DNA of 64,000 bases from an uncultured Actinomycetes bacterium (GCA_963749895.1 CAVVOG010000003.1:63415-127414); one strand, 5' to 3'. Positions 1 through 22,581 are shown, numbered from the stretch's first letter. Program-made: numbers and translations. The notes: generated by a model from the sequence alone, not told the origin.

Positions 1-382
1 CGGTCGGCGCGGACCCTGGCTTCGCTTGATGGACGCCCTCGGGTTCGGTTTCGACTCCTGAGCCCGCATCGACCGCCCCCTCGTCCCGCGATCGCGGAGG
101 TGAGTCTGCGCTGTCGACTGTCCCTCGTTCTTCCTACCCTGTGAATCTCGGCAAGGTTGGGTAGGCTACGCGTAACTAGGAGAGGGCCGAAGTGCCTAGG
201 TCGTTGTGGCTAGGTCGACAGGGCATACCCCGAGGTGGGGAGGGGTTCCAGGTTTCGGATCGTCTTGCCCGTGGCTGGGAGGCCAAGGGGCCGAGGGACT
301 CTAGGACTTTCCGCTGATTGACCTAACCCACGATGAGGCTACAGCATACGGATGACCGGCTCTCCATCCCCCTGATAGGGGA

Positions 383-1981
383 GTGGAGGGGATGAGCCTC
401 CGAGGCGGAGGGCGTGAGGCTCCGAGGGCGGTGTGGCGAAACCCTCAGGATGGGCGGATCTGGATGGGCTTGGAGATGAGTACACAGGTCGGGACGGAGG
501 CGGACGACACCGTCGAGGTCGACCGGTCGCGGACGGCCGACGTCCTGCGCGTGACCGCGGGTGACGTCACCGTCACGACCGAGGTCCCGCTCGAGGAACC
601 GCGTGCGCGGGTGGCACAGCCCTCCGCGGCGGCGGCTCGCCGTCGGGTGGCGTTCGGCATCGCCATGGGCGACGTCGTCGCGTTCGTGGCCGCGATCGTC
701 GTGTCCGACGTGTTGCGTGACACCTCCTTGCCCGTGGCGCTCCTCATGGTGCTCCCGATCCCGCTGTGGCTCGCACTGGTGGGCGCCTTCAGCAATACGG
801 CGTCGTCCGTGATCGCCGGGAGGCTCGGGCTCGCCCGGATCGGCGGGAGCGTCGGCATCGTCGGGTGCGGGGTGGCGATCATCGCCGGTGGGACCCCGGG
901 GTTCGGACCCCGGCTCGGCGTCTTCGTCTCGGCGCTGCTGATCCTCGATCTGTTGCAGCGCGGTGGGTGGGCCTTCTACGCGAGGAGCGAGCGTCGTCAG
1001 GGCCGGCTCCGTCTGCGGACCGTCCTGGTCGGCACGGGAGGCGAGCCCGCCGACTTCGTCGAGATCTTGCGGTCGACAGCCTCGGACCTGATGCCGGTCG
1101 GACGGTTCGTGATGCGCGCCGAGGAGCCGCCCCCGGATGCCCTGCCGACCTTCCGCCGGCTCTCCGAGATCGCCGAGCTGGCGTCCGATGGGACGATCGA
1201 TTGCCTGCTGGTGGCCTCGAGCTCGTTCACCCGAGGGGAGCTCGCGGAGCTGCGGCGGTTCTGCCGCACGTCCGAGCTCCAGCTCCGCGTGTTCACCCGC
1301 GCGCCGGAGGCGGTCGGGTCCAAGCTCGACATCTCGCCTCTCGGGCCGGGGGCCCTCGTCACGGTCCGACCGGCGAAGCTGAACGGCGTCCAGGCCGTCT
1401 TGAAGCGGGGCATGGACATCGTCGCGTCGTCGATCGGCCTGCTCCTGCTCTCGCCGGTGTTCGCGGTGATCGCGATCCTCATCAAGAGGTCCTCGCCGGG
1501 TCCGGTCTTCTTCCGGCAGAACCGCGTGACGCGCGGGGGAAGGGTCTTCAGGATCGCCAAGTTCCGGACGATGGTTACCGACGTGGACCGAATCTTCGCC
1601 GAGAACGGCATCGATCCGACCGTGCCGTTCTTCAAGCCGGACGGCGAGATGCTCGTCACCCGCGTCGGGCGCGTGCTCAGGGCGACCAGTCTCGACGAGC
1701 TTCCCCAGCTCTGGAACGTGCTGGTGGGACAGATGAGCCTCGTCGGGCCGCGGCCGCTCCCACAGGACCAGGTCGTGGCCAACCCCGCGCTGCTCGAGGG
1801 TCGTCACGACGTCCGCGCCGGGGTGACCGGGTGGTGGCAGGTCAACGGGCGCAGCGATGTCCCTGCCGAGGAGGCGGTCCGCCAAGACGTCTTCTACGTC
1901 GAGAACTGGTCGGTCGGGCTCGATATCCGCATCCTCCTCAAGACGTTCGGGGTGCTCGTGTCCCGGCGGGGTGCCTATTGA
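383..1981 (+). CDS. Polyprenyl-phosphate glycosyl-1-phosphate transferase (bacterial sugar transferase family), priming enzyme of the polysaccharide locus
   Basis: 532-aa ORF with a hydrophobic N-terminal half. C-terminal blocks PGPVFFRQNRVTRGGRVFRIAKFRTM, DELPQLWNVLVGQMSLVGPRPLP, GWWQVNGRSD and YVENWSVGLDIRILLKT are typical of WbaP/EpsB-type transferases. Start uncertain (in-frame ATG at 383, 464, 476). Confidence 0.85.
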   Translation: MEGMSLRGGGREAPRAVWRNPQDGRIWMGLEMSTQVGTEADDTVEVDRSRTADVLRVTAGDVTVTTEVPLEEPRARVAQPSAAAARRRVAFGIAMGDVVAFVAAIVVSDVLRDTSLPVALLMVLPIPLWLALVGAFSNTASSVIAGRLGLARIGGSVGIVGCGVAIIAGGTPGFGPRLGVFVSALLILDLLQRGGWAFYARSERRQGRLRLRTVLVGTGGEPADFVEILRSTASDLMPVGRFVMRAEEPPPDALPTFRRLSEIAELASDGTIDCLLVASSSFTRGELAELRRFCRTSELQLRVFTRAPEAVGSKLDISPLGPGALVTVRPAKLNGVQAVLKRGMDIVASSIGLLLLSPVFAVIAILIKRSSPGPVFFRQNRVTRGGRVFRIAKFRTMVTDVDRIFAENGIDPTVPFFKPDGEMLVTRVGRVLRATSLDELPQLWNVLVGQMSLVGPRPLPQDQVVANPALLEGRHDVRAGVTGWWQVNGRSDVPAEEAVRQDVFYVENWSVGLDIRILLKTFGVLVSRRGAY

Positions 1982-2019
1982 TCCGACATCCATCGAGTTG
2001 GCCTCTCGAGGAGGCTTCC

Positions 2020-2883
2020 GTGAGCTCGCCATCGTTGCCCGACCTCTCGTCACGGGAGATCGCCGGCATGCGGGTCGATGCCACCTCCTACGAGGACTCG
2101 ATCCTCCGCGTGATGACGTGGGCGGCGGGCGCTGAGTCCAAGGCGGTCGCGATCGCCACCGTGAACAACGTGATGGAGGCGCACGACGACCCATCGTTCG
2201 CCGCGGTGATGGCCGAGTGCGACCTCGTCACACCCGACGGGATGCCGCTGGTGTGGGCCCTGCGGCGACTGGGGGTCCGGGACGCGACGCGCGTGTACGG
2301 GCCGGAGCTCACGCCCCGGCTCCTCGCTCGCGCCGCCCGCGACGGGGTGCCCGTCGGCTTCTACGGCGGGACCGACGAGGTGATCGCCGCCTTGCTCGCA
2401 AGGCTCGAGCGCGAACTGCCCTCCCTCGAGGTCGCCTACGTGCACGCGCCACCCTTCCGCGCCCTCACCCCCGAAGAGGACGCCACGGTCGTCGACGCGG
2501 TCGTCGCGTCCGGGTGCCGTCTGCTGTTCGTGGGCATCGGGTGCCCGAAGCAGGAGCGATGGATCGTCGAGCACCGAACCGAGATCCCCGCCGTGATGCT
2601 CGGCGTAGGCGCCGCGTTCGACTTCTACGCGGGCCTGAAGCGGCAGGCGCCCGGCTGGATGCAGCGGAGCGGGCTCGAGTGGCTGTTCCGCCTGGGCACA
2701 GAACCGCGGCGGCTGTGGAAGCGATACCTTCGACACAACCCTCGATTCGTGGCGCTGTTCGCCGCGCAGCTGGTACGGACGAAGACGCCGTCGCGACGCG
2801 CGGCGGAGCCGCGGATCACGGATCAGAACGCGAGACCAACACCGAATTCGACACCAAGACCAGAACCGAGGAAGGAGTCATGA
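2020..2883 (+). CDS. WecB/TagA/CpsF-family (GT26) glycosyltransferase
   Basis: In-frame GTG at 2020 is preceded by GAGGAGG (2009-2015). Motifs LVTPDGMPLVW, FYGG, LLFVGIGCPKQERW and GVGAAFDFYAG are present. The upstream part of ORF 766..2883 is only read-through across the previous gene. Confidence 0.85.
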   Translation: MSSPSLPDLSSREIAGMRVDATSYEDSILRVMTWAAGAESKAVAIATVNNVMEAHDDPSFAAVMAECDLVTPDGMPLVWALRRLGVRDATRVYGPELTPRLLARAARDGVPVGFYGGTDEVIAALLARLERELPSLEVAYVHAPPFRALTPEEDATVVDAVVASGCRLLFVGIGCPKQERWIVEHRTEIPAVMLGVGAAFDFYAGLKRQAPGWMQRSGLEWLFRLGTEPRRLWKRYLRHNPRFVALFAAQLVRTKTPSRRAAEPRITDQNARPTPNSTPRPEPRKES

Positions 2884-3872
2884 CGATGAAGCGTGCGGTC
2901 GTGGGAGGCGCAGGTGGGTTCATCGGCCACCACCTGGTGAAGTACCTGAAGGCCGAGGGGTACTGGGTCCGCGGGGCCGATCTCAAGGAGCCGGAGTACG
3001 AGGCCACCGAAGCCGACGAGTTCGAGATCCGGGACCTGCGCGAGTACGAGAACTGCCTGTGGGCGACCGACGGGGTCGACGAGGTGTACCAGCTCGCCGC
3101 CGACATGGGCGGGATCGGGTACATCACCGCGAACCACGCGGAGGTCGCCCGCAACAACGTGCTGATCAACGCGCACATGCTGGAGGCGGCGTACCGCTCC
3201 GGCGTGGAACGGCACTTCTACTCGTCGTCCGCCTGCATCTACCCGATGTACAAGCAGCACGAGCCCGACGTCACCCCGCTCCGGGAGGAGGACGCCTACC
3301 CGGCGGACCCCGAGGAGGGGTACGGATGGGAGAAGCTCTACGCCGAGAAGCTCTGCCAGTACTACACCGACGAGGGCAAGGTGGAGACCCGCGTCGCGCG
3401 GTTCCACAACATCTACGGTCCACTCGGCACGTACGAGGGCGGGCGTGAGAAGGCACCCGCGGCGATCAGCCGCAAGGTGGCGTTGGCCGCCGACGGCGAC
3501 TCCATCGAGATCTGGGGCGACGGCAAGCAGACGCGCTCGTTCACGTACGTGGACGACTGCGTCGAGGGGATCGTCCGTCTGATGAGGTCGGACCACCGTG
3601 CTCCGCTGAACCTCGGGACGGACCGGCTGATCTCCGTCGACGACCTCGTCGACCTCGTGAGTGACGTCGCCGGCAAGTCGCTGGTCAAGGTGCACGACAC
3701 GTCGAAGCCGCAGGGTGTCCGTGGCCGCAACAGCGACAACACGAGGCTCCGCGAGGTGCTCGGCTGGGAGCCGGGAACCACCCTCGAGGACGGCATGGGG
3801 ACGACCTATCGCTGGATCGAGGCCGAGCTGGCCCGCGCGGGTCGGATCGCCCCGCGCGCCGAAGTCAGCTGA
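2880..3872 (+). CDS. GDP-mannose 3,5-epimerase-like NAD-dependent epimerase (extended SDR)
   Basis: ATG 2880 follows GAAGGAG and overlaps the upstream stop (ATGA). Motifs GGAGGFIGHH, SSSACIYP, YGWEKL (YxxxK), RFHNIYGP, GGREKAPAA, QTRSFTYVDDCVEG and GVRGRNSDN are colinear by eye with GME over the full length. Confidence 0.8.
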   Translation: MTMKRAVVGGAGGFIGHHLVKYLKAEGYWVRGADLKEPEYEATEADEFEIRDLREYENCLWATDGVDEVYQLAADMGGIGYITANHAEVARNNVLINAHMLEAAYRSGVERHFYSSSACIYPMYKQHEPDVTPLREEDAYPADPEEGYGWEKLYAEKLCQYYTDEGKVETRVARFHNIYGPLGTYEGGREKAPAAISRKVALAADGDSIEIWGDGKQTRSFTYVDDCVEGIVRLMRSDHRAPLNLGTDRLISVDDLVDLVSDVAGKSLVKVHDTSKPQGVRGRNSDNTRLREVLGWEPGTTLEDGMGTTYRWIEAELARAGRIAPRAEVS

Positions 3873-5191
3873 TGCGCATCTGCGTCATCGGCACCGGCCA
3901 CGTCGGTCTCGTCACGTGCGTGACGCTGGCCGAGATCGGCCACGACGTGACCGGGACGGACCAGGATGCCGAGAAGATGGAGGCGCTGCGGCAGGGCCGC
4001 TCGCCCTTCCACGAGCCGGGGCTCGACGACCTCCTCCGCCGACACCTCGACGCGGGGGATCTCCGGTTCGTCGACGATCCGAGTGGTGCCGTCGCGACGG
4101 CCGACGTCGTGTTCATCTGCGTCGGGACGCCTCCCCGGGCATCCGGGGAGGCGAACCTGCTCGCGGTCGAGCAGGTGGCACGTCAGGTCGCTCAGGATGC
4201 TGCCGGCCCCCTCGTGATCGTCCAGAAATCGACGGTTCCGGCCGGCAGCGCGGACCGACTCCGTCGGACCCTCACGCTCGAGCGCCCCGATCTGGGGCCG
4301 ACGATCGACGTGGTCTCGAACCCCGAGTTCCTCCGGGAGGGCAGAGCGGTGGAGGACTCCCTCCTCCCGGACCGGATCCTGGTCGGGGCGTCGACCGAGC
4401 GGGCGTTCGCCGCGTTGCGCGAGGTCTATCGCCCGCTCCTCGATCGAGGTGTCCGACTGATCGAGACGGACGTGCGGAGCGCCGAACTGGCCAAGCACGC
4501 CAGCAACGCCTTCCTCGCCCTCAAGATCTCGTTCGCGAACGCACTCGCGAGGATCGCCGAGCGCACCGGATCCGATGTGGAGTCCGTCACCGGCATCATG
4601 GGTGCGGATCCGCGGATCGGCGCCGACTTCCTCTCTGCCGGCATCGGGTTCGGGGGGTACTGCTTCCCGAAGGACCTCGTGGCCTTCGATCACCTCGCAG
4701 CGTCGGTCGGGTACGAGTTCGGCCTGTTGAAGGAGGTCGCCGCGATCAACGAGGAGGCGGTCGCGGCGGCCGTCGACAAGGTGCGTGACGCCCTGTGGAA
4801 CCTCGAGGGCAAGCGCGTGGCGCTGCTCGGGCTGTCCTTCAAGCCCGAGACGGACGACGTTCGCTTCTCGCCCGCCCTGGCGGTGGCGCGCAGCCTGCTG
4901 GCGTCGGGCGCCGAGGTCGTGGGCACCGACCCGCAGGCATCGACCGCCGCCCTGCAGGAGGTTCCCGGTCTCGAGATCGCGGAGAACGCCTACGAGGCTG
5001 CGCGGGGTGCGCATTGCCTCGTGCTGTGCACGGCGTGGGACGAGTACCGGAACCTCGACCCCGCCAAGCTCGGCGAGCTGGTCGCGTACCGTGTGATCGT
5101 CGACGGGCGCAACGCCCTGGACGGTGCTGCGTTCGCGGAGGCGGGGTTCGCCTACCACGCGATGGGTCGGCCGTCGCGCGGCACCGTGTAG
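3872..5191 (+). CDS. ugd: UDP-glucose 6-dehydrogenase
   Basis: [14 protein letters not shown] Rossmann N-terminus, NPEFLREG, and GGYCFPKD catalytic-Cys block. The start overlaps the upstream stop (TGATG). Confidence 0.9.
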
Positions 5192-5201
5192 GGTCTCGGT
5201 C

Positions 5202-6131
5202 GTGCGTGCGGTCGTCACGGGCGCGGCGGGCTTCGTCGGGTCGCACGTCGTCACGAGGCTGGTGGACGACGGGTGGACCGTCGTTGGGCTCGACAACCTC
5301 GTCACCGGTCGTGACGAGAACCTCGATCATCTCGCCGAGAGGGACACCTTCTCGCTCCGCCACGCCGACGTGTCCGAGGGGTTCACGCTCGACGGAGAGG
5401 TGGACCTGGTGCTGCATCTCGCCTCGCCGGCCTCCCCGCCGGACTACCTGCAGCGCCCCCTCCAGACGCTCCGGGCGGGCTCCCTCGGCACGCAGTCTGC
5501 GCTCGACCTGGCGACGGAGAAGGGCGCCCGGATCGTGCTGGCCTCGACGTCGGAGGTCTACGGCGACCCGCTCGTACATCCGCAGACGGAGGACTACTGG
5601 GGCAACGTGAACCCGGTGGGTCCGCGTTCCGTGTACGACGAGGCGAAGCGCTACGCGGAGGCGCTGGCGATGGCCTATCACCGGGTCCACGGACTGTCGG
5701 TCGCGCTGGCGCGGATCTTCAACACCTACGGGCCGCGGATGCGCCGCGACGACGGGCGAGCGGTGCCGAACTTCGTCGTCCAGGCACTGCACGACGAGCC
5801 GATCACCGTGCACGGGGACGGATCGCAGACCCGTTCGCTGTGCTTCGTCGACGACCTCGTCGAGGGTCTGATGAGGCTCGCGGCGAGCGAGCACACGGGT
5901 CCGCTGAACCTGGGCAATCCCGAGGAGGTCACGGTGCTCCAGCTCGCTGAGCTGGTCCGCGAGCTGAGCGACAGCCGCTCCGAGGTGGTGTTCGTCGAAC
6001 GGCCGGAGGACGACCCCGCCCGGCGACGTCCCGACATCACGCTCGCGAGGTCGGTCCTGGGGTGGGAGCCGACCGTTCCGCTGCGCGAGGGGCTGGCCCG
6101 GACGCTCGAGTGGGCGACGCCGCGATGGTGA
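5202..6131 (+). CDS. uxs: UDP-glucuronate decarboxylase (UDP-xylose synthase)
   Basis: GTG 5202. Motifs [57 protein letters not shown] and [14 protein letters not shown]. Confidence 0.85.
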
Positions 6132-6141
6132 CCGGCCGCCC

Positions 6142-7296
6142 ATGCGCATCCTGATCCTGCATTCGCGGTACCTGTCCGGCGACGTGTCGGGCGAGAACCG
6201 TGTCGTCCGGGACGAGGCGCGGGTGCTGTCGGAGGCCGGCCACGACGTGCTCCTGCACGAGCCGGCCCCCTCCGTGTCGGGCCTGCGGGCGCAGGCCTCG
6301 ACGGCGGCGAACAGCATCTGGGCGACGCGGGTCGCGGCTGAGGTGAACGCGACGGTGCGGCGTCGGGGGATCGACGTGGTGCACGTCCACAACCTCTTCC
6401 CCGAGCTGTCCCCCCTCGTGCTCAAGGCGGCCCGTCGTGGGGGGGCGGCCGTCGTGATGACGCTGCACAACTTCCGTCTGATGTGCCTGCCGGCCACGCT
6501 GCAGCGTGAGGGCCGAGCCTGCGAGCTCTGCGTCGGACGGCTCCCGTTGCCCGGTGTCCGGTACGGGTGCTACCGGGGCTCGAGGGTCGGTTCGGCGGTC
6601 ATGGCGACGTCGCTCGCGCTCCATCGGGCGATCGGGTCCTTCGGCGCGGTCGACCGCTACCTGGCGGTGAGCGGATACGTCCGCGACCGCCACATCGAGG
6701 CGGGGCTCGACCCGGCGAGGGTCGGCGTCAAGGAGAACTTCGTCTGGCCGCAGCTCGCCCGTCGCGGGACCGAGGGACCGTTCCTGTTCCTGGGCCGCCT
6801 CACCTCCGAGAAGGGTCTCGACACGCTGTTCGATGCGTGGCGAGCGGCGCCGGATCTGGGGGAACTGGTCGTGGCCGGCGACGGACCCGAGCTCGAACGG
6901 CTCCGCGGCGCCGCGCCCGTCGGGGTCCGCGTGATCGGAGCGGTGCCCGCGGACCAGGTCCCCGACATGGTCGCCGCGGCGCGGGCCGTCCTCGTGCCGT
7001 CCGTGTGGCCGGAGCCCGCGGTGCCACGGGCCGTCCTCGAGGCCTACGCGTCGCGTGTCGGTGTGGTCGCCAGCGCGGTGGGGGGGATGCGCGAAGGGGT
7101 TCGTGAGGGTGAGACCGGGTACCTGGTCCCGCCGGGCGACGTCGATGCCTGGGTCGAGGCGCTCCGGCGGCTCCGCCGTGCGGGCGAAGCCGAACGCCTC
7201 GGTGACGGGGGCTTCGCCGTGTGGCGCGAACGCTACGGGCCGGACGCGGGGCTCCGTGCGCTCGAGGCCGTCTACGCGGAAGCGGCCGCTCGATGA
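6142..7296 (+). CDS. GT4-family (GT-B fold) glycosyltransferase
   Basis: MRILILHSRY N-terminus, FLGRLTSEKG, and an EPAVPRAVLEAYASRVGVVASAVGGMREGV block resembling the E-x7-E region. Confidence 0.85.
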   Translation: MRILILHSRYLSGDVSGENRVVRDEARVLSEAGHDVLLHEPAPSVSGLRAQASTAANSIWATRVAAEVNATVRRRGIDVVHVHNLFPELSPLVLKAARRGGAAVVMTLHNFRLMCLPATLQREGRACELCVGRLPLPGVRYGCYRGSRVGSAVMATSLALHRAIGSFGAVDRYLAVSGYVRDRHIEAGLDPARVGVKENFVWPQLARRGTEGPFLFLGRLTSEKGLDTLFDAWRAAPDLGELVVAGDGPELERLRGAAPVGVRVIGAVPADQVPDMVAAARAVLVPSVWPEPAVPRAVLEAYASRVGVVASAVGGMREGVREGETGYLVPPGDVDAWVEALRRLRRAGEAERLGDGGFAVWRERYGPDAGLRALEAVYAEAAAR

Positions 7297-7298
7297 GG

Positions 7299-8237
7299 TC
7301 AGCGGTGCAGACGCGCGGCGGCCTTGCGGGGCAACTCGTCGGTGAGTCGGCCCCACGGACGGTACAGCCGGTTGCGCCGACGGAACCGCTCCAGCGCGGC
7401 ATCGAACGCGGGGTCGCTCGCGATCGTCCGTTCGAAGCGCTCGGTCGCCCACGCGTACAGCTCGACGTCCAGGCTGTTGGCGGCCCGGATCTGCTCGACG
7501 GTCGCAGGCGACGGCGGAACCTTCTCGGCGGCAGGCGCGACGTTGGCTGCGACGTAGTAGAGGTGCGACCAGTCGAAGGCACGCCCCATCAGCAGGAGGC
7601 TCTCGTCGAAGCGCTCCGTGAGCCCGACGACCGCGAACCGATCCTCGAGGTGCGCCTTCGCCGTCGCGAGCATCTCCCCGTCGCACTCCCCGAACGGGGT
7701 CGAGACGTCGCCGGCGAGCGCGCGGGTCTGGCTGTTGTCGGTTTCGAGCGAGAGCCCGCTCGTGACGAATCCCTCCAAAGGGAGTCCTCGCGTGCGGAGC
7801 TCCTCGTGCAGGATGTGCTTGGGCGTGCGCCCGATGTAGCGGTAGAGGGAGACGACGAGCTCCACGGGGTCGCGCAGCATCGTGACGTAGGTGCTCGGGC
7901 GGGGGATCAGCTCGTGAAGCCCGTAGGGGGCATGCCCCATCACCAGCCGCGCGCGGGCGCGATCGGTCTCGGGGATCGCGGCGAACGCCGCCAGGCCCCC
8001 TTCCCGTCGCAGTCGGCCGGGCTCGGGCAACGGCGCTCGGAACTCGAGGATCTGGTTCCGGCGGACCTGTCGTCGCAGGATGCTCCTGAGCGACGACCCC
8101 GCCGTCTTGCCGATATGGAGGAAGATGATGGTCGGATCGGCTGATCGCAAGGGGCGGCAGTCTAGCAGCGGATATACTGCCGCCCCTCCCGTGGGTGATG
8201 CAGCTCCTCCCGTCTCCGTCGTGTGCATCGGCGCCAT
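7299..8237 (-). CDS. Sulfotransferase ST1 (HxxKTGG-type PAPS loop, Sulfotransfer_2-like)
   Basis: FLHIGKTAGSSL (5'-PSB-like) and MLRDPVELVVSLY (3'-PB-like). The longest ORF starts at ATG 8237. A TTG at 8150, eight nt after a TAGACT hexamer, would remove the divergent overlap with ST2. Confidence 0.75.
   Translation of the reverse strand: MAPMHTTETGGAASPTGGAAVYPLLDCRPLRSADPTIIFLHIGKTAGSSLRSILRRQVRRNQILEFRAPLPEPGRLRREGGLAAFAAIPETDRARARLVMGHAPYGLHELIPRPSTYVTMLRDPVELVVSLYRYIGRTPKHILHEELRTRGLPLEGFVTSGLSLETDNSQTRALAGDVSTPFGECDGEMLATAKAHLEDRFAVVGLTERFDESLLLMGRAFDWSHLYYVAANVAPAAEKVPPSPATVEQIRAANSLDVELYAWATERFERTIASDPAFDAALERFRRRNRLYRPWGRLTDELPRKAAARLHR
8150..8187. repeat. 12-bp perfect inverted repeat (AGGGGCGGCAGT / ACTGCCGCCCCT, 14-nt spacer) in the divergent ST1/ST2 start region
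   Basis: Read directly: 8150-8161 is the exact reverse complement of 8176-8187. The hexamers TAGACT (minus, 8164-8159) and TATACT (plus, 8173-8178) straddle the junctions between spacer and repeat arms. Confidence 0.8.
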
Positions 8238-9168
8238 CGGTCAGAGCGGATCGACGCTCCTGACGCGCATGCTCGGACAGGTCCCCGGCTTCGTCGCCGT
8301 GGGCGAGACCGGCCGCGTCTGGGACAAGGGCCTCGGCGAGAACATGGAGTGCGGGTGCGGTCAGCCCTTCCGGTCGTGCGACTTCTGGTCGCAGGTCGGA
8401 GAGGCGGCGTTCGGCGGGTGGGGGTCGGTCGACGCACGTGAGGCGACGCGACTGCGTGACCACCTGACCCTGCGCGGTCGGGCTCCCCATCCTTTCGCGT
8501 TGCCGCTCGTCCTGTGGCCCCGACTCTCCAAGGGGTTCGCGAAGGACATGGCCCGCTACGCCTCGCTGATGCATCGCCTGTACGCGGGGATCAGCGAGGT
8601 GTCCGGAGGCAGCACGATCGTCGACTCGATGAAGCAGCCGGCGCACGTCTACATGATGAGCAGGATGCAGGGTATCGACGTCGACGTCGTCCACATCGTG
8701 CGGGACCCGCGCGGCGTCGCCTACTCGAAGACGAAGTGGATCCACCGGCAGGGCGCGAGGTCCGACGAGTTCCGGGTGCGGCGCAAGCCGCCGAAGACGG
8801 CGGAGAAGTGGACGTGGATGAACCTGTCGTTCGACGCCCTGCCGTTGACGGGCGAGCCGGTCACCCGGGTGACGTACGAGGCCCTCGTCGGCTCTCCGGA
8901 GCAGGCGATGTCGCAGGTCCTGACCGGCATCGGACGCCCTCCCGGCGAGGGCGATCTCGGATTCATCCACGGCAACGAGGTCGTTCTGTCCGTCGACCAC
9001 TTCGCCGCGGGCAGTCGGATGCGTCTGCAGGCCGGGCCGGTTCCCCTGGTGCTCGATGAGGTCTGGCGACGGGAGCTTCCCTCGGGCCAGCGTCGCCTGG
9101 TGACCGCCCTCAGCCTTCCGCTGCTGCGCCGGTACGGCTACCCGGTTCGGACCGGGCCGGAGGGCTGA
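8191..9168 (+). CDS. Sulfotransferase ST2 (P-loop GQSGSTLL type)
   Basis: VVCIGAIGQSGSTLLTRML (5'-PSB) and VVHIVRDPRGVAYS (3'-PB). The ORF is open from 8080. GTG 8191 was chosen to avoid overlap with ST1, so the start is uncertain. Confidence 0.75.
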   Translation: MGDAAPPVSVVCIGAIGQSGSTLLTRMLGQVPGFVAVGETGRVWDKGLGENMECGCGQPFRSCDFWSQVGEAAFGGWGSVDAREATRLRDHLTLRGRAPHPFALPLVLWPRLSKGFAKDMARYASLMHRLYAGISEVSGGSTIVDSMKQPAHVYMMSRMQGIDVDVVHIVRDPRGVAYSKTKWIHRQGARSDEFRVRRKPPKTAEKWTWMNLSFDALPLTGEPVTRVTYEALVGSPEQAMSQVLTGIGRPPGEGDLGFIHGNEVVLSVDHFAAGSRMRLQAGPVPLVLDEVWRRELPSGQRRLVTALSLPLLRRYGYPVRTGPEG

Positions 9169-10079
9169 TGCGGCTGCCCAACCTGGTGATCGTCGGCGTG
9201 GGCAAGGGCGGCACGACGTCCCTGTTCTGGTACCTGTCGCAGCACCCCGACGTGTGCGCGTCCCATGAGAAGGAGATCCGGTACTTCGCCGCGCTCACGG
9301 AGGGTGGCGACCACCTGCCTCCCGTCGAGGAGTACGCGCAGCACTTCCGGCACTGCCGAGGGGAGCGCTTCGCGTTGGAGGCGAGCCCGCAGTACTTCCA
9401 CGGAGGAGAGCGGGTCGCCGCGGCGATGGCGGGCCTGCTCCAGGAACCGCACGTCGTCGTCTCGCTGCGCGATCCGGTTGAGCGGCTCTGGTCTCAGTTC
9501 CGGTTCGTGAAGACCCGGCTCGGTCCGATCCCCGAGTCGCAGACCTTCGAGGAGTACGTGGAGCGCAGCGAGCGTGTGTGGCGAGAGGAAGCGACGCTGA
9601 CGCCCGATGTCCTGCCGTACTGGCACCTCGCCGGCGGTGTCTACGCCGACCACCTGGAGCCGTGGTTCGCGACGTTCGGCGACCGGTTCCGCGTGGTCTT
9701 CTTCGAACAGCTCGCCTCCGATCCGGCAGGGGTCGTCGACGGGCTCGCCGGCTGGCTGGGTATCGACCGCGAACCGGTCGGTTCGTTCCGCTACTCGGTC
9801 GAGAACCGCACGACGATGTTCCGGAGCGAGCGCCTCCAGCGGATCGCGCTGTACCTGAACCGCGAGGACCTCCTCGGGCGGCATCGCCGGCTGAAGGACC
9901 CGCTACGGAAGCTGTACTACGCGGTCAACCGCCGCCAGGACGGCGACGCGATGCCAGTGGCGGTCCGTCGACACCTGCAGGAGCTCTACGCGCCCCAGAA
10001 CGCACGGCTCGCGGCCATGCTCAGCGAGCGCGGCTACGCGGAGCTCCCCGCTTGGCTGGCAACGCCCGGCCCGCACTAG
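9168..10079 (+). CDS. Sulfotransferase ST3 (Sulfotransfer_1-like, GKGGTTS loop)
   Basis: MRLPNLVIVGVGKGGTTSLFWYLSQHP (5'-PSB) and VVVSLRDPVERLWSQF (3'-PB). The ATG overlaps the ST2 stop (TGATG). Confidence 0.85.
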   Translation: MRLPNLVIVGVGKGGTTSLFWYLSQHPDVCASHEKEIRYFAALTEGGDHLPPVEEYAQHFRHCRGERFALEASPQYFHGGERVAAAMAGLLQEPHVVVSLRDPVERLWSQFRFVKTRLGPIPESQTFEEYVERSERVWREEATLTPDVLPYWHLAGGVYADHLEPWFATFGDRFRVVFFEQLASDPAGVVDGLAGWLGIDREPVGSFRYSVENRTTMFRSERLQRIALYLNREDLLGRHRRLKDPLRKLYYAVNRRQDGDAMPVAVRRHLQELYAPQNARLAAMLSERGYAELPAWLATPGPH

Positions 10080-11334
10080 CCACCGCGCGGGTCGCCTCGG
10101 CGTCGCCCTCGTCGGGCCTCCCGAGGGTGGATGCGATCGCGGCAAGGGCGAAGACGGTCGCGGACCGGGAGAGCCCTTCGAGCACCGGATTGAAGGCCAT
10201 CGCGACGAAGAATCCGTTCAGGCCCACGAGGAGGAGGCGTGCGAGCCTCGCTCGCTCCGGGGAGCCCGCGGCCGCGAAGGCGAAGTGCGCACGGATCAGG
10301 CTGGTCAGCAGGAGCACGATCCAGGCGCCGAGCAGCACGGCGCCGACGAGCCCTCCTTCGGCCAGGAACATCACGAAGTCGTTGTGATACGGGGACGCCG
10401 TCGTCTTGCTCGATTCGGTCACCGTGTCGCTCGCGAACCCCGTCCCGATGAACGGCGACTCCTGGAAGGTGGCGATCCCGTTGGCCCAGAACTCGAGGCG
10501 ACCCTGGCTCGTGTTGCGCTTCCCCACGGTCTCGAAGTACCTGCCCGCGACCTCGGTGCTCGCTCCGAAGTTCGCGACGGCGACCACGACGAGGATCAGC
10601 GCGACCCCGCCGATCAGGTAGGGGCGTGCGCGCGACGCTCCTGCGCTGGTCGCGAGCAATGTCAGGACCGTGACCAAGGTCACCAGGGTCGAGGTGGCCG
10701 AAGGGTAACCGAGGAAGATCACGGCGGCGCCCCCCACGAGCGCGAAGGTCCACCAACGATGGCCCAGCATGTAGGTGGCGGCGGCCCCGATCGTCACGTA
10801 GGGGAAGGTGGCGTTCTTGAACTGCCGGTACTCCGCGAGTCCGGGGAGGAGGCCGGAGTAGACCGCGGCTCCGAGCACGATGTAGATCGTGGCGATCCAC
10901 GCGAGCGCCCGAACCACCCGGAGCGATTCGTCTTCCCGCAGCGGTTCCACGACGAACAGCGAGGCGATCGCCAGGGACATCGGCAGGAAGAGCGCGCGCG
11001 CGGTGCTCGTGACCCCCAGGAACAGGACGCCATACATCGTGCCGACGAAACCGAAGGCGAACAGCAGGATCAGGGCGATCTCGTAGTGCCGGGGTTTGCG
11101 GATCAGCGTCGAACCGTTCGAACGGATCGCGAACAGGGCAGCGATCGGCACGAGCAGGATCACGTACCGCACGGCGCCGCCCCTGACCGACCTGTCGAGG
11201 ACGTTGAAGACGTCGACGGCGGTGGCGAAGAACACGACGAGCAACGCTCGTGCGTACCGATAGCCGTCGCTGGGGATCGTCCTTGCGGGGCGCACGAGGC
11301 TCCGGGTATGGAGCGCCGAGGTGGGGGAGACCAT
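10021..11334 (-). CDS. O-antigen ligase/polymerase-family membrane protein (Wzy-like)
   Basis: About 10 hydrophobic segments and a YHNDFVMFLAEGGLVGAVLLGAWIVLL block typical of the Wzy_C/O-antigen ligase domain. ATG 11334 (MVSPTS...) was chosen; the ORF is open to 11571. The 3' end overlaps ST3 by 59 nt (convergent). Confidence 0.75.
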   Translation of the reverse strand: MVSPTSALHTRSLVRPARTIPSDGYRYARALLVVFFATAVDVFNVLDRSVRGGAVRYVILLVPIAALFAIRSNGSTLIRKPRHYEIALILLFAFGFVGTMYGVLFLGVTSTARALFLPMSLAIASLFVVEPLREDESLRVVRALAWIATIYIVLGAAVYSGLLPGLAEYRQFKNATFPYVTIGAAATYMLGHRWWTFALVGGAAVIFLGYPSATSTLVTLVTVLTLLATSAGASRARPYLIGGVALILVVVAVANFGASTEVAGRYFETVGKRNTSQGRLEFWANGIATFQESPFIGTGFASDTVTESSKTTASPYHNDFVMFLAEGGLVGAVLLGAWIVLLLTSLIRAHFAFAAAGSPERARLARLLLVGLNGFFVAMAFNPVLEGLSRSATVFALAAIASTLGRPDEGDAEATRAVASAGRALPAKRGAPRSRAR

Positions 11335-11360
11335 CGCGGGACACGATACCGGCTCGTACC

Positions 11361-11366
11361 TATACT
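11361..11366 (+). promoter_or_regulatory. -10-like hexamer TATACT, 7 nt upstream of ATG 11374 (leaderless-type arrangement)
   Basis: Matches TANNNT. There is no Shine-Dalgarno sequence between the hexamer and the ATG. Confidence 0.4.
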
Positions 11367-11373: not shown

Positions 11374-12345
11374 ATGCCTGGGTCTGGATCCCTGCCCACC
11401 GTGGTCGCGAGCTCGGTCGTGCGCTCCAGCTACCAGGGCGAGAGCCATGGTGGGGTCTATCTGGTCGACCTGAACTCCGGCTCGGTCGAACAGGTGCTCG
11501 ACTGGAGCGAGGGGTCGATCAGCTGGGAGGGTCGCGGTGGCGACCGTGGGCTGCGCGGCATCGCGTTCCACGGATCACACATCTACCTCGCGGCGAGCGA
11601 CGAGATCTTCGTCTTCGACTCCGACTTCGTGCATCTCGGTTCGTTCCGCAACCCGTATCTCAAGCACTGCCACGAGATCGACATCCGCGGCAACCGCCTG
11701 TACGCGACGTCCACCGGATTCGACTCGATCCTCGAGTTCGACCTGTCGTCGGAGCGGTTCATCCGCGGCTACTGCGTCCGGTTCTCTCCGATCTGGCGGG
11801 CCCGGCGCAAGCTCCGCGTCCGTCCACGTCCTCGCTTCTCGGTCTTCGATCCGACCGGTCCGCTCGGGCCCGGGCCCGCCGACACGTGCCACGTCAACAA
11901 CGTCGTGGCCGACGACGACGGGCTCCTCGTCTCGGGAACGGGGCTGGAGGACATCTGGCGCATCCAAGGAGCATCGCTGTCACGTGCTGCCCGGATCGCC
12001 TACGGGTCCCACAACGCGCGGCTCTTCCGCGACGGTGCCCTGCTCAACCACACGAAGACGGATCGGGTCGCCTTCATGGATCGCCGCGGCACGCTCCTGC
12101 GATCGTGGGCGATCCCGAGGTTCGCGCGTGATGAGCTCGACCACGCGGATCTGCCGGAGGACCTCGCCCGCCAGTCGTTCGGGCGGGGGCTCGCCGTCGT
12201 GGACGGCGACCTATTCGTGGCCGGCTCGTCGCCAGCGACCGTGACCGCCTATGCGTTCGACTCGACCGAGGCCCTCGCCCACGTCAACCTGACCAAGGAC
12301 GTCCGCAACGCGGTTCACGGGCTCGAGGTCTGGCCCTTCTCGTAG
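11374..12345 (+). CDS. Hypothetical cytoplasmic beta-propeller-like protein (possibly DUF4915/TIGR03032-like)
   Basis: 323 aa with no signal peptide. Recurrent blade-like segments: GIAFHGSHIYLAASDEIFVFD, HEIDIRGNRLYATSTGFDSILEFD, VVADDDGLLVSGTGLEDIWRI, LAVVDGDLFVAGSSPATVTAYAFD. The family name is a guess. Confidence 0.6.
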   Translation: MPGSGSLPTVVASSVVRSSYQGESHGGVYLVDLNSGSVEQVLDWSEGSISWEGRGGDRGLRGIAFHGSHIYLAASDEIFVFDSDFVHLGSFRNPYLKHCHEIDIRGNRLYATSTGFDSILEFDLSSERFIRGYCVRFSPIWRARRKLRVRPRPRFSVFDPTGPLGPGPADTCHVNNVVADDDGLLVSGTGLEDIWRIQGASLSRAARIAYGSHNARLFRDGALLNHTKTDRVAFMDRRGTLLRSWAIPRFARDELDHADLPEDLARQSFGRGLAVVDGDLFVAGSSPATVTAYAFDSTEALAHVNLTKDVRNAVHGLEVWPFS

Positions 12346-13310
12346 ACCGAGTGGGCTTCCCCGCCCTTCGACGTCCGCCAGAGCAGACCGCCCGCGGCGC
12401 TCCGCCCCTTCGTGAGGGCACGACCGTACGCGGTGCGAGCGACGTCGGAGCCGAGGGACCCGAGCGAGACTGGGATCTCGTCGAGCTCTCCGAGCAGCCC
12501 GTCGAGCGAGTACCCCATCACGGCCAGACGCTCCTGACCGATCCACCGCAGGTAGTCGCGACACCATCGGCGACGCACCGACGAGGAGATCGACCGCTTC
12601 CATCGTTCCAGCGGTTCGGTACTGAGCACGTCGTAGCGATGCCGTCCGGTCGGATCACCCATCCGCGCCTCCACGTCGACGCCGGCGAATCGGGCGAGAG
12701 AGGCGGGGTCGAACGCCACGCCGACGTGGTCGAAGAGGGCGGGCCAGGTCTCCTCGGGACGCGTGAGGAGGTCTTCGAAGCGGACGGCGTGGGTCCGGTC
12801 GGCGTGCGCCTCGTACGCGCGCACGAGGTTGTCGATGCCCTCGAACAGATCCACGCGCCAGCGTTCGACCATCCACCGGCCTCGACCCCAGGTCTCCACG
12901 GTCGACGCGACCACGGCCAGCGGGTTGCGCCACAAGGTCACGAAGTGGGCCTCAGGGAAGATGCGGTACAGGTCGTCGGCCACGAAGTGGTATCGCGGGG
13001 TCTTGTCCACGAACAGCCGGTCGTTCGGCTCCGAGGCGGCGAGGTAGAGCCGCTCGACGAACCCACGGACCTCCGACCAGTAGCGCTCCCGACCGCCGTC
13101 GAGCCGATCGGCGAAGTCGCCGATCGCCCGCCCCGCGAGCGCGTGGCCGTACTCGGCGTAGGCGCCGGCGTCGCGCAGGGCGTAGACCTGGGGAAGCACG
13201 ATCCAGGGTTCGGCTGCCGTCGCCACACCGTCGTGCGCCGCGAGCACGCGCTGCACGAGCGTGGAGCCCGAACGCGGGAGCGACAGGAGGAACACGGGTG
13301 TGACGCTCAT
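12315..13310 (-). CDS. Sulfotransferase ST4 (LPRSGSTL loop)
   Basis: MSVTPVFLLSLPRSGSTLVQRVL (5'-PSB) and HFVTLWRNPLAVVAS (3'-PB-like). ATG 13310 overlaps the wzx-like stop (ATGA). Confidence 0.8.
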   Translation of the reverse strand: MSVTPVFLLSLPRSGSTLVQRVLAAHDGVATAAEPWIVLPQVYALRDAGAYAEYGHALAGRAIGDFADRLDGGRERYWSEVRGFVERLYLAASEPNDRLFVDKTPRYHFVADDLYRIFPEAHFVTLWRNPLAVVASTVETWGRGRWMVERWRVDLFEGIDNLVRAYEAHADRTHAVRFEDLLTRPEETWPALFDHVGVAFDPASLARFAGVDVEARMGDPTGRHRYDVLSTEPLERWKRSISSSVRRRWCRDYLRWIGQERLAVMGYSLDGLLGELDEIPVSLGSLGSDVARTAYGRALTKGRSAAGGLLWRTSKGGEAHSVYEKGQTSSP

Positions 13311-14752
13311 GAGCGACGACCTCCTCGGCCGGCTCGGCCCTTGCCCGTGAGGAACTCCATGAAGGGGCCGGGCGACAGCTGGATGTGGGTCCACACGCCG
13401 ACGAGGCGATGGGCGAGGTAGAGCTGCACGAGGTTCTGCACGATCTGCGCGGACGCGGTCGTCACGGCGACGCCGATGAGACCGAACCGGGGTGCGGCGA
13501 AGATCCCCGAGACGACGCTCAGGATGCCGGCGCTGACCGTCACGGTCATCGCGACCCGTTGGTAGCCGGTCATCATCAACACGACCGCGCACGAACCCGT
13601 CCACACGGCGACCAGACGCCCGATCGACAAGATCACGAGCGCCGTCGCACCCTGCGCGTAGAAGTCCCCGTACACGACGCTCATCACCCAGGGTCCGAAC
13701 GCGATGAACACGAGCAGGACGAGGAACGAGGGCAACCCGGCGATCGTCGCGGCCCCGCGGAGCGCGCGTTCCATGTCGTGGGTCCGTCCCTGCTCGTGGA
13801 GTTCGGCGACGATCGGCGGCGTCACCCCCTGGACGATCAGGAAGGGCGTCGCGACGAAGACCACGAGTCGTGACGCGGCCCCGTAGATCGCCACGTCGGT
13901 CTGGCTCTGGTAGGCACCCAGGATCCACAGGTCGACCCCGCGCCCCAGGAGCAGGATCGAGATGTTCGTGATCAGCAGGGGCCACGCGTAGGAGAGCAGC
14001 TCGCGACGCCCGACGTCGCCCTCGCCGTGGAGGCCGCGCACACGACCCAGGAGGAGGCCCGCGGCGAGGACGGTCGTGGTGAGCGTCGCTCCGGCCGACA
14101 GGATCACGATCGCGCGGAGGTCGGCGCCGGCACCTGCCAGGACGAGGACCCCGAAGATCGACGCCGAGAGGGTGTCCACGAGGAGGGCGTCCAGAACCGT
14201 CGAGAGATCGAAGCGCTGGAGGCCGCGGAAGGTCTCCACCAGGAGCGATTGGAGCGCCGTGACGATCAGCCATCCCGCCGCGATCGGCATGACCGCCTCG
14301 ATCGCGCCGGACCGGAACACGGACGTGGCGAGCCAATCACCGACCCCGAGCCAGAGGAGCGCCCCGGCGACGAGCGATCCGAGTCCACCGTAGGTCAGCG
14401 ACCTGCGGATCGCGGCCTTGGCCCTGCCCGGGTCGCCCGCGGCGATCGCCCCCGACACGAAGCGCACGACCGCCCGGTCGAGCCCCAGCTGCGCGACCGT
14501 GCTCCCGATCACCACCAACGCGTACGTGGTGAAGTACGCGCCGAGCTCCTCGGGACTCAGGAGGCGAGCGAGCATCGAGTTGATCGCGACCCCGAGGGCG
14601 ATCGTGGCGATCTTCCCGCCCATCACCCAGGCGGAGCCACGGAGGATCCGTCGCCGAAGACTGGCGAACGCCTCTCCGCGCGTGACGATCACGTTGCCTT
14701 CGAGAGCCTCACCTACCGCCTCGCCCACCGGGTCGGTCGCCGCGTCACCCAC
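13307..14752 (-). CDS. Polysaccharide flippase (MOP/PST family, Wzx-like)
   Basis: 481 aa with about 12-14 hydrophobic helices and an N-terminal RGSAWVMGGKIATIALGVAINSMLARLLSPEELG segment typical of PST-family proteins. GTG start at 14752. Confidence 0.8.
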   Translation of the reverse strand: MGDAATDPVGEAVGEALEGNVIVTRGEAFASLRRRILRGSAWVMGGKIATIALGVAINSMLARLLSPEELGAYFTTYALVVIGSTVAQLGLDRAVVRFVSGAIAAGDPGRAKAAIRRSLTYGGLGSLVAGALLWLGVGDWLATSVFRSGAIEAVMPIAAGWLIVTALQSLLVETFRGLQRFDLSTVLDALLVDTLSASIFGVLVLAGAGADLRAIVILSAGATLTTTVLAAGLLLGRVRGLHGEGDVGRRELLSYAWPLLITNISILLLGRGVDLWILGAYQSQTDVAIYGAASRLVVFVATPFLIVQGVTPPIVAELHEQGRTHDMERALRGAATIAGLPSFLVLLVFIAFGPWVMSVVYGDFYAQGATALVILSIGRLVAVWTGSCAVVLMMTGYQRVAMTVTVSAGILSVVSGIFAAPRFGLIGVAVTTASAQIVQNLVQLYLAHRLVGVWTHIQLSPGPFMEFLTGKGRAGRGGRRS

Positions 14753-14758: not shown

Positions 14759-15691
14759 TCACCAGTCCTCGTCGCCGTAGAACGCACCGGCGATCGGTTC
14801 GACCCCGCCGCGGATCCGGGCGAGGTCGTCGGAGGAAAGCGAGCGCCGCCACGCCTGCACGGCGGCCCGGCTGTCTCGCTTCGTGGAAGCCATGTCGGCG
14901 ACCTGGTCCGGGTTCGACGCGTCGCTGTGCTCCAGGATCGTCGCCCGAACCTCGTCTTCGAACGGCATCCCGAGATGGTCGAACATCGTGCCGAACCGCG
15001 AGAGGGGGTCGTGCGCGACATCCTCGAGCCGCAGGAACAGCCAGTCCGGCCTGTTCGCCTGGAACTCGGCGATCGCGTGGTGGATCAGGTTCCACAGGAG
15101 GATCCCCTGGTCGAGCAGCGGCTGTTCCTGTTCGGCGAACCGCTGGACCTCGCCATCGAACGGCGCGAGCGGCCCCTCCATCAGGAGCGGCTGGTCCACG
15201 AAGTCACGGAAGGGATGGTGCAGTTCGCGGCGGACGACGCTGTCCACGAACGCGGCAGGATGGCGGATCAGGACGATCACGTCGGCGTCGAGCCGGTCGG
15301 CGATCCACTCCGAAGAGAACACGGCGATCGGGTCCTTCAGCAACGGCCTTGCACCTCGTGCCCTGAACCGCCGGAACCTTCGGGCGTCGCGCATCAGCCG
15401 TCCGGCATCCTTCGGGGTCCGGATCGCCCGGATCTCCGCCGCGTACCGATAGCGATACGCGAGCATGTCGCGGAGCCCTGGCTCGTAGCGGTCATGGTTC
15501 CGTTCGCACACGTACTCGAACCACTTGTCGAAGGGCACGTCACGGATCCCGGGCCGAGCGAGTGGGCTGAACGGTTCCCACAGGTAGGCGATGGGGTGAG
15601 AAGGGGATGCCGCTATCATGCTGCCCACCCATCCCGTGCCGGACCGGTGTGAACCGGTCACCAAGATCGGTTTTCGGCTCGGAAGGGACAC
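14759..15691 (-). CDS. Sulfotransferase ST5 (SHRSGT loop, Stf0/Sulfotransfer_3-like)
   Basis: ILVTGSHRSGTGWVGSMI (5'-PSB) and VIVLIRHPAAFVDS (3'-PB-like). GTG start at 15691. Confidence 0.7.
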   Translation of the reverse strand: MSLPSRKPILVTGSHRSGTGWVGSMIAASPSHPIAYLWEPFSPLARPGIRDVPFDKWFEYVCERNHDRYEPGLRDMLAYRYRYAAEIRAIRTPKDAGRLMRDARRFRRFRARGARPLLKDPIAVFSSEWIADRLDADVIVLIRHPAAFVDSVVRRELHHPFRDFVDQPLLMEGPLAPFDGEVQRFAEQEQPLLDQGILLWNLIHHAIAEFQANRPDWLFLRLEDVAHDPLSRFGTMFDHLGMPFEDEVRATILEHSDASNPDQVADMASTKRDSRAAVQAWRRSLSSDDLARIRGGVEPIAGAFYGDEDW

Positions 15692-15735: not shown

Positions 15736-16527
15736 ATGGCTGGGACGACCAGGTTCGGGGTGGTGACGCCGTCGCTGAACGCGGAGAGCTACCTCGAGGA
15801 CACCCTGCGCTCGATCTGGTCACAGGACGGGTTCGAGATCGATCATGTGATCGTCGACGGCGGGTCGACCGACCGAACCCTGGAGATCGCGGCGGCGTTC
15901 CCGTCCAGGGTGGTGGTGTCTCCCGACGATCAGGGCATGTACGACGCGATCAACCGCGGGATGTCGCTCGTGGAGGGCGACATCGTCGGCTACATCAACG
16001 CCGACGACGAGATCGCGCCCGGGGCGTTCCGTCTGGTGGCGGAGGCCTTCGAGCGGGACGGCGATGCGCAGTGGCTGTTCGGCACCGTCGAGTACACGGA
16101 CGGCGAGGGCAAGGTGATCGGCCACCTCGCACCGATCGCGCCCTCGCTCCGTGCCTTCCTGGGGATCGGGTGGTCGCCGATCCCGCAGCAGACCGTGTGG
16201 GCGCGGCGCTCCTTCTACGACCGTGTCGGGCCGTTCGACATCGGGTACCGCAACTGCGGCGACTACGACTGGTACGCGCGAGCCTTGAAGCTGGCCAAGC
16301 CGCTCGTCCTCCCGGAGGTCCTCGGCAGGTTCAGGCTGCACGAGGGCCAGATCTCGTTGAACCTCGAGAAGATGGAGCGCGAGAGCCGCATGGTGCGCGA
16401 GCGTCACGGTGGCGCCGGGACCGATGCGTACCTCCTCGGGCGCCTCCTGAGCCTGAGGCTCAACGCGCGTAACCCCGACTGGTTCATGGCGAAGCGTACC
16501 GGCCGTATCAGCTTCGAGCCGCGCTGA
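15736..16527 (+). CDS. GT2-family glycosyltransferase
   Basis: FGVVTPSLNAESYLEDTLRSIWSQ, IVDGGSTDRT, and YINADDE (DxD). ATG 15736 follows GGGAG. Confidence 0.85.
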   Translation: MAGTTRFGVVTPSLNAESYLEDTLRSIWSQDGFEIDHVIVDGGSTDRTLEIAAAFPSRVVVSPDDQGMYDAINRGMSLVEGDIVGYINADDEIAPGAFRLVAEAFERDGDAQWLFGTVEYTDGEGKVIGHLAPIAPSLRAFLGIGWSPIPQQTVWARRSFYDRVGPFDIGYRNCGDYDWYARALKLAKPLVLPEVLGRFRLHEGQISLNLEKMERESRMVRERHGGAGTDAYLLGRLLSLRLNARNPDWFMAKRTGRISFEPR

Positions 16528-22552: not shown

Positions 22553-22581
22553 AACGGTTGGGCTCGAACGGAAGGGTGACG

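Follow-up and report, generated by a model that had tools for sequence, protein, structure and literature searches.

An uncultured, high-GC member of the Actinomycetota probably carries a nucleotide-sugar supply module at the front of a Wzx/Wzy-type polysaccharide cluster that also codes for six sulfotransferases. The module occupies positions 2880-6131 of the 64,000-nucleotide stretch analysed here (GCA_963749895.1 CAVVOG010000003.1:63415-127414, hereafter the window) and belongs to a six-gene operon heading the cluster. It consists of three plus-strand genes, as an earlier preliminary description of this DNA had it: one for an orthologue of GME, the GDP-mannose 3,5-epimerase, one for a UDP-glucose 6-dehydrogenase (UGDH) and one for a UDP-glucuronate decarboxylase, or UDP-xylose synthase (UXS). 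The glycosyltransferase of the GT26 (WecG/TagA/CpsF) family encoded directly upstream, which recurs as the partner of GME elsewhere, is the most useful new lead. The GC content of the window is 65-73%, and third-position GC makes the coding frames clear.

Among solved structures, the closest matches of the window GME are the plant GMEs 8sg0 (E 2.6e-105) and 2c59 from Arabidopsis (1.5e-104), both scoring about 355 bits across residues 5-319. MoeE5 stands for the next family, at 107 bits (E 1.7e-29), and UXS1, GDP-fucose synthase and GalE-type enzymes come after it. Identity is 49.5% to Arabidopsis GME versus 22-28% to the related E. coli enzymes. GMEs are defined by a glycine-rich NAD motif, a Ser/Tyr/Lys triad, a cysteine acid, a lysine base and an arginine that acidifies the cysteine (PMC8787198; PMC6678494), and all of these are kept in the window protein. 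The NAD-binding GxxGxxG/A motif is present as GGAGGFIG (aa 9-16, window 2904-2927), and in the alignment to 2c59 the residues S117, Y148 and K152 correspond to the Arabidopsis triad S143, Y174 and K178, C119 (in SSACIYP) and K191 (in GGREKAPAA) to the acid C145 and the base K217, and R283 (in GVRGRNSDN) to R306. The three motifs singled out in the preliminary description, namely RFHNIYGP (3399-3422), GGREKAPAA (3438-3464) and GVRGRNSDN (3714-3740), were all recovered and are colinear with plant GME.

The phylogeny proposed there as a check points the same way. We computed a neighbour-joining tree with 500 bootstraps from the window GME, 20 prokaryotic homologues from the fetched loci, two plant GMEs, human UXS1 and the E. 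coli K-12 proteins Fcl, Gmd, RfbB and GalE; the plant GME and human UXS1 sequences were taken from structure-search alignments and the E. coli ones from the annotated genome, and BlmG and MfGM35E were left out. The window GME, its 20 prokaryotic homologues and the two plant enzymes form a clade in 490/500 replicates, which excludes the four E. coli proteins and the UXS clade, and a split between prokaryotic and plant GMEs appears in only 6/500. The epimerase thus falls with the plant GMEs and away from 4-epimerases and dehydratases. Taken with the structure matches and the Cys/Lys/Arg residues, this marks it as a genuine GME orthologue, an assignment as firm as sequence allows.

The dehydrogenase and the decarboxylase proposed alongside it have proved equally secure in their structure matches, domains and clade. 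UGDH contains the three domains PF03721, PF00984 and PF03720 and scores 413 bits on TIGR03026 (cutoff 190), falling short of the TuaD equivalog at 411 bits (cutoff 700). Its top solved-structure match is the bacterial UGDH 4a7p from Sphingomonas (4e-101). Against 342-224 bits for solved UGDHs stand 181 for GDP-mannose dehydrogenase and 157 for UDP-ManNAcA dehydrogenase, and GDP-mannose dehydrogenase was rejected as the identity of the enzyme on the margin of 181 versus 342 bits. What we take to be the catalytic-cysteine motif lies at aa 259-268 (window 4646-4675). UXS is 53.8% identical to human UXS1 (6e-106, the next family reaching 4e-38) and clusters with it in 496/500 bootstraps. Its motifs STSEVYG, YDEAKR and DDPARRRPD line up with those of the human enzyme and presumably represent the TSE...YxxxK...R active-site pattern; decarboxylation of UDP-glucuronate to UDP-xylose is the predicted activity. 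The N-termini of the UXS orthologues in two close relatives, L081 (MARAVITGAAGF) and L082 (VSRVVITGAAGF), agree with a GTG start at 5202, for which the start of the longest open reading frame (ORF), at 5124, was dropped. By their sequences, UGDH and UXS are ordinary orthologues, distinctive only in being paired with GME and with sulfotransferases. Similarities of this size exceed chance by far.

The six genes from 383 to 7296, coding in order for a priming polyprenyl-phosphate glycosyl-1-phosphate transferase (PGT), GT26, GME, UGDH, UXS and a GT4 glycosyltransferase, make up a run without sizeable gaps (Table 1), which we read as an operon because its junctions overlap or stand 10 nt apart. 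The GT26 stop and the GME start share an ATGA overlap (2880-2883), with the Shine-Dalgarno sequence GGAAGGAG preceding the GME ATG, and a single base is shared by the stop of GME and the start of UGDH, in TGATG (3870-3874). UGDH and UXS are separated by a 10-nt gap. Hence, the translational coupling ascribed to the three module genes applies to the GT26/GME and GME/UGDH junctions and is only approximate for UGDH/UXS. A scan of 1-8400 found no terminator-like site between the operon genes, its sole match lying inside the PGT gene; over this interval promoter and terminator matches did not exceed the shuffled expectation, and the scan is therefore uninformative on the operon limits in such GC-rich DNA. 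An Rfam scan of the whole window found no RNA family. No ORF lies in window 1-382, and some 380 nt of leader thus precede PGT; in the related locus L031, two LuxR-type regulator genes fill the space between the genes for tsaD and a short-chain dehydrogenase/reductase (SDR) and that for PGT.

Table 1. Genes of the polysaccharide cluster and the nearby APS kinase gene, by window position
Gene product	Position	Strand	Supporting matches and remarks
PGT, priming polyprenyl-phosphate glycosyl-1-phosphate transferase, operon gene 1	383..1981	+	PF02397 208 bits; TIGR03025 317 bits (cutoff 295.6)
GT26 (WecG/TagA/CpsF family) glycosyltransferase	2062..2883	+	PF03808 199.6 bits; TIGR00696 173 bits; alternative start 2020
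GME, GDP-mannose 3,5-epimerase orthologue, 330 aa	2880..3872	+	plant GME matches ~1e-105
UGDH, UDP-glucose 6-dehydrogenase, 439 aa	3872..5191	+	three UDPG_MGDP_dh domains; TIGR03026
UXS, UDP-glucuronate decarboxylase / UDP-xylose synthase, 309 aa, GTG start	5202..6131	+	human UXS1 6e-106
GT4 glycosyltransferase, last operon gene	6142..7296	+	PF13692, PF00534, PF13439
Sulfotransferase ST1, Gal-3-O-sulfotransferase-like	7299..8237	-	PF06990 58.6 bits
Sulfotransferase ST2	8080..9168	+	PF13469 36.6 bits
Sulfotransferase ST3	9168..10079	+	PF13469, PF00685
Wzy-type polymerase	10021..11334	-	PF04932 53 bits
Sulfotransferase ST4, weakly NoeE-like	12315..13310	-	PF13469 107.7 bits
Wzx-type flippase	13307..14752	-	PF01943, PF13440
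Sulfotransferase ST5	14759..15664	-	PF13469 30.2 bits
GT2 glycosyltransferase	15736..16527	+	PF00535 82.8 bits
Sulfotransferase ST6	17657..18463	+	PF00685 32.5 bits
PCP, chain-length determinant / tyrosine autokinase, right end of cluster, just before groES	22558..24252	+	PF02706, PF13614; TIGR01007 122.9 bits (cutoff 108)
APS kinase CysC, outside cluster beyond groESL	29445..30071	+	PF01583 199.6 bits; TIGR00455 210 bits

The cluster extends from 383 to 24252 and is followed by groES-groEL. By Pfam and NCBIfam, it brings together the PGT, the flippase, the polymerase, the co-polymerase and the sulfotransferases, whose number, six, agrees between the earlier count and Pfam. For ST1 the match is to a family of animal enzymes, the Gal-3-O-sulfotransferases (58.6 bits), and for ST4 it is to the N-terminal part of the NoeE model, at 80.8 bits, far under the cutoff of 500; NoeE itself is a sulfotransferase acting on fucose, that is, 6-deoxy-L-galactose. 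These matches are weak hints, compatible with a galactose-configured acceptor while proving nothing. Between GT2 and ST6, 1 nt from the latter, stands a gene for a lone pyruvate-kinase barrel of 341 aa (16630-17655, +; PF00224 213 bits; TIGR01064 250 bits, cutoff 306) that lacks the C-terminal domain. Neither Pfam nor NCBIfam matches three further cluster genes, at 11401-12345 (+), 19642-20895 (-) and 21192-22472 (+), of which the first is kept in L031 at 66% identity. Beyond groESL, a gene for a type-I nucleotide pyrophosphatase/phosphodiesterase overlaps the start of cysC (27979-30071 for the pair, +), and the same pair follows groEL in the related locus L004.

The association of GT26 with GME extends well past this window. 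Of the 61 genome loci that extend 2 kb or more to each side of GME, 22 have a GT26 homologue within 300 nt, which makes it the commonest direct neighbour; the same count gives 2 for GT4, 2 for GT2 and 4 for PGT. In the reverse direction, the window GT26 fetched 80 metagenome loci (48-84% identical), 70 of which have at least 300 nt downstream; a GME-like gene directly follows the GT26 homologue in 34/70, and in two more it lies within 4 kb. The best solved-structure match of GT26 is TagA/TarA, at 88 bits only; solved enzymes of this family are second-step transferases, acting on a lipid-pyrophosphate-linked first sugar. The recurrent pairing therefore makes GT26 the best candidate for an L-galactose or L-gulose transferase. 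We give about an even chance, or somewhat less, to a GT26 subfamily that transfers what GME makes into second place in the repeat unit, the association between the two being strong though not exclusive. A wider proposal, to be held tentatively and with more doubt than favour, is that a cross-phylum GT26 subfamily uses GDP-L-galactose or GDP-L-gulose to place the second sugar on an undecaprenyl-pyrophosphate primer and that, in this actinobacterial lineage, the GT26-GME pair with UDP-xylose synthesis and the six sulfotransferases would build a sulfated polymer of the L-galactan or xylogalactan type.

The head of the operon is conserved as a block of five genes. L081 and L082, in which GME is 85-87% identical, keep the order tsaE-tsaB-rimI-tsaD-SDR-...-PGT-GT26-GME-UGDH-UXS with abutting genes, and in the relatives the cluster occupies the interval between tsaD and groES. 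Directly after UXS, where the window has GT4, these two code for a Kelch/beta-propeller repeat protein of about 1100 aa and then for other transferases (L081 13215-16532, L082 13235-16561). Other Actinomycetota show PGT-GT26-GME-UGDH-UXS (L006), PGT-GT26-GME-UGDH up to the contig end (L008) and GME-UGDH-UXS from a contig start at GME (L010). L031 (85% identity) retains nearly the whole window cluster, in the order PGT-GT26-GME-GT4-ST1-ST2-ST3-Wzy-unknown-ST4-Wzx-ST5, with a GT4 that is 63% identical to that of the window and follows GME directly, by about 60 nt (L031 10950-11060). The 2.3-kb UGDH-UXS pair (window 3872-6141) is thus found in the window, L081, L082, L006 and L010, not in L031, and seems to have been inserted into, or deleted from, a cluster that is conserved in other respects. 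L012 has GME-UGDH without UXS. In L013, L015 and L021, UXS lies close to GT26-GME, and no UGDH was detected within 10 kb. With the pair lying within 5 kb of GME in 7/61 genome loci, UGDH-UXS is a recurrent, optional accessory. In L012, GME-UGDH is followed by an unknown 441-aa protein, a Sulfotransfer_1 enzyme, a GT4 and a sulfatase-family protein (12435-16959), which places a sulfatase-like gene within a biosynthetic cluster.

From the gene content, we propose a pathway that would begin with housekeeping GDP-alpha-D-mannose. GME would oxidise it at C4 with bound NAD+ (S117, Y148, K152), epimerise C5 and C3 with C119 as the acid, K191 as the base and R283 assisting, and then re-reduce C4, yielding GDP-beta-L-galactose together with the 5-epimer GDP-beta-L-gulose. 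UGDH would convert UDP-glucose to UDP-glucuronate and UXS would turn the latter into UDP-xylose. The PGT would prime undecaprenyl phosphate with a hexose-1-phosphate, GT26 would most likely add the L-hexose as the second sugar, and GT4 and GT2 would contribute further sugars, including xylose and possibly glucuronate. Structure searches with these last two, made to suggest their donors, gave weak and generic matches only. CysC, the adenosine 5'-phosphosulfate (APS) kinase, would make the 3'-phosphoadenosine 5'-phosphosulfate used by the sulfotransferases on the repeat unit, which would then be flipped by Wzx and polymerised by Wzy. The substrates, the matching of transferases to donors, the ratio of L-galactose to L-gulose, the incorporation of glucuronate and the sulfation of the product are what we infer from these gene identities. 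A plausible product is a sulfated polymer that combines an L-hexose with xylose and may or may not contain glucuronate, and its resemblance to algal or animal glycans is to be read as an analogy.

Several observations weigh against a module that feeds GT26 and a dedicated sulfated polymer in this way. About half, and no more, of the close homologues of GT26 have GME within 4 kb, and the assignment of a donor to GT26 is therefore tentative. Although L031 has the most similar cluster and shares the transferases, UGDH-UXS is missing between its GME and GT4, and xylose or glucuronate may therefore be an optional decoration. GME stands just upstream of groES-groEL in L002 and L004, and in the latter no polysaccharide gene of the window type was detected within 10 kb of it, Pfam scans of the nearest neighbours also finding none. 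No ManB/ManC or ATP sulfurylase gene is present in the window, so that GDP-mannose and APS would have to come from genes elsewhere. Actinomycetota use GDP-mannose for housekeeping glycolipids, and an outside supply is for that reason reasonable. In L004, the neighbours of GME at 5601-11881, directly before groES-groEL, are tsaD, an SDR, an ASCH/cupin protein, a DAO FAD-oxidoreductase and a LigB dioxygenase.

The alternative that survives best concerns glucuronate, which the preliminary description had listed as a building block beside the L-hexose and xylose. UDP-glucuronate is the obligatory intermediate on the way to UDP-xylose and the established substrate of UXS; hence UGDH is needed merely to feed UXS, and glucuronate in the polymer does not follow. 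UGDH may then serve UXS solely, giving a polymer of xylose and L-hexose, a pair and not a triad, which we regard as a serious possibility, though on balance the lesser one. The presence of just three glycosyltransferases beyond the PGT (GT26, GT4 and GT2) is in keeping with it, as are L013, L015 and L021, where UXS accompanies GT26-GME with no nearby UGDH. Three transferases would fit three special sugars just as well, and the GME-UGDH of L012 without UXS suggests that UDP-glucuronate is itself a donor in this lineage. With UGDH-UXS varying among L031, L012 and L013/L015/L021, the three-sugar prediction is one of several combinations found in the lineage. Of the overall interpretation offered earlier, the enzyme identities and their place in a cluster with six sulfotransferases stand, and neither the supposed rarity of GME nor the implied glucuronate does.

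A second question is which L-hexose is used. The enzyme could mainly make GDP-L-gulose by epimerising C5 only, as has been proposed for BlmG, and the polymer would then contain L-gulose, not L-galactose. Characterised GMEs release both products, the actinomycete homologue BlmG is linked to L-gulose (PMC6678494), and the product that is used depends on the transferase pulling the equilibrium. We nonetheless consider an L-gulose polymer unlikely: L-galactose is the main product of characterised enzymes, with MfGM35E giving about 15 g/L of it against 5 g/L L-gulose (PMC6678494), and no sequence feature was seen that tells one outcome from the other.

Comparably improbable, in our estimate, is a destination in a wall-anchored glycopolymer, capsule or glycoconjugate in place of a released exopolysaccharide. 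Classically, GT26 enzymes carry out the second step in making wall teichoic acid and enterobacterial common antigen, as the TagA/TarA match recalls, and the cluster stands in a housekeeping locus. The window, on the other side, contains no detected LCP-type ligase or teichoic-acid ABC exporter, and the set of Wzx, Wzy and PCP/tyrosine kinase is typical of capsule and exopolysaccharide pathways.

Very little favours the last alternative, in which the GME homologue uses another nucleotide sugar or runs a 4-epimerase, dehydratase or GDP-fucose-synthase-like reaction: NCBIfam contains no GME model (hence the generic name 'NAD-dependent epimerase/dehydratase' on many public homologues, close ones included) and its best match is GDP-L-fucose synthase, yet at 138 bits this is far under the cutoff of 500, the tree groups the protein with GMEs, and the cluster has no Gmd as a source of a 4-keto-6-deoxy substrate. 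GDP-fucose synthase moreover uses His and Lys where GME has a Lys base and Arg (PMC8787198), and the window protein has the latter; with the score and the wrong catalytic base, GDP-fucose synthase was rejected as its identity.

The view that GME is uncommon in bacteria has to be given up. A word-indexed protein search with the window GME returned at least 8000 proteins, the best 120 of which are all at least 76% identical, many of them named GDP-D-mannose 3',5'-epimerase by the Joint Genome Institute. A scan of one genome per species confirmed GME in at least 597 loci, a lower bound since its seeds need an exact 8-residue peptide shared with the query. These loci span Actinomycetota, Acidobacteriota, Alpha- and Deltaproteobacteria, Myxococcota, Planctomycetota and Bacteroidota, as well as candidate-phylum-radiation lineages (Saccharibacteria, Patescibacteria) and several archaeal phyla. 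The best genome relative among the matches listed is KatS3mg013, with a GME 85% identical, and a library clustered at the 50% identity level yields 1202 matching representatives at E <=1e-30. One bacterial GME has been biochemically characterised, and homologues from actinomycetes have been connected with the bleomycin and A201A pathways (PMC6678494). GME is a minority trait that is not found in the usual model bacteria, yet it is neither rare nor new in bacteria.

Set beside known systems, the window enzymes are familiar and their context is less so. With Arabidopsis GME (2c59) the window protein shares about 50% identity over the SDR domain, the glycine motif, the Ser/Tyr/Lys, Cys, Lys and Arg residues and the clade; MfGM35E of Methylacidiphilum fumariolicum, like it, lacks the plant N- and C-terminal extensions and adjoins a glycosyltransferase (PMC6678494). 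The settings differ, with a predicted sulfated Wzx/Wzy operon in the window, ascorbate and cell-wall metabolism in plants and a presumed lipopolysaccharide locus in M. fumariolicum. BlmG of the bleomycin pathway and the A201A epimerase are Actinomycetota GME homologues that likewise supply L-gulose or L-galactose to a dedicated transferase (PMC6678494). They lie in antibiotic clusters, whereas the PGT, Wzx, Wzy and PCP of the window point to a polymer; BlmG was compared by description only. The UGDH and UXS pair shows no notable difference from bacterial UGDH (4a7p) and human UXS1, sharing the three UGDH domains, the catalytic cysteine and the TSE, YxxxK and R motifs. As a whole, the cluster resembles the synechan xss cluster of Synechocystis PCC 6803 (PMC8205485) and the wps-1 cluster of Actinoplanes missouriensis (PMC13390465), which are both Wzx/Wzy-dependent and include sulfotransferase genes, two in each as against six in the window. 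Sulfation is proven for synechan and not for wps-1 (PMC8205485; PMC13390465), and the wps-1 paper contains no epimerase, GDP-mannose or xylose term (PMC13390465). By sequence, the window genes are further members of enzyme families already described, set in a cluster of the synechan-like type (PMC8205485), with a product predicted to be sulfated.

The rest of the window is largely of housekeeping character (guaA, pcrA, sucCD, purN, purH, folD). At 32300-36012, the GC content drops to about 0.65 over genes for an RTX calcium-binding-repeat protein (33090-33662, -), an ECF-type sigma factor (34545-35033, -), a PIN-domain protein (35203-36012, +) and two ORFs without a Pfam match. Farther on, at 46312-53884 (-), there are four adenylate/guanylate cyclase-domain genes, two of them fused to alpha/beta-hydrolase domains, and scattered among them are genes for a family-5 solute-binding protein (47702-49681) and a 242-aa ORF without a Pfam match; the cyclase set looks like a local paralogue expansion.

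Because the enzymes are ordinary orthologues, the locus is of value for its predicted product and for the lead on a transferase; as enzymology it offers nothing new. In recent papers, sulfated polysaccharides of actinomycetes still count as unverified (PMC13390465; PMC8205485), and a cluster with six sulfotransferases adds to the thin evidence for such polymers outside cyanobacteria. A review of GME asks for new GMEs from prokaryotes and for glycosyltransferases able to use what GME makes (PMC8787198), and both are on offer here, in the form of a well-conserved actinobacterial GME and a candidate transferase family. Our literature search on bacterial L-galactose polymers and known GDP-L-galactose transferases turned up nothing decisive. 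If the role proposed for GT26 is true, its members would be the first bacterial L-galactosyl or L-gulosyl transferases for polymers, and the product would be a sulfated polymer of the L-galactan or xylogalactan type, chemically convergent on the glycans of red algae and ascidians.

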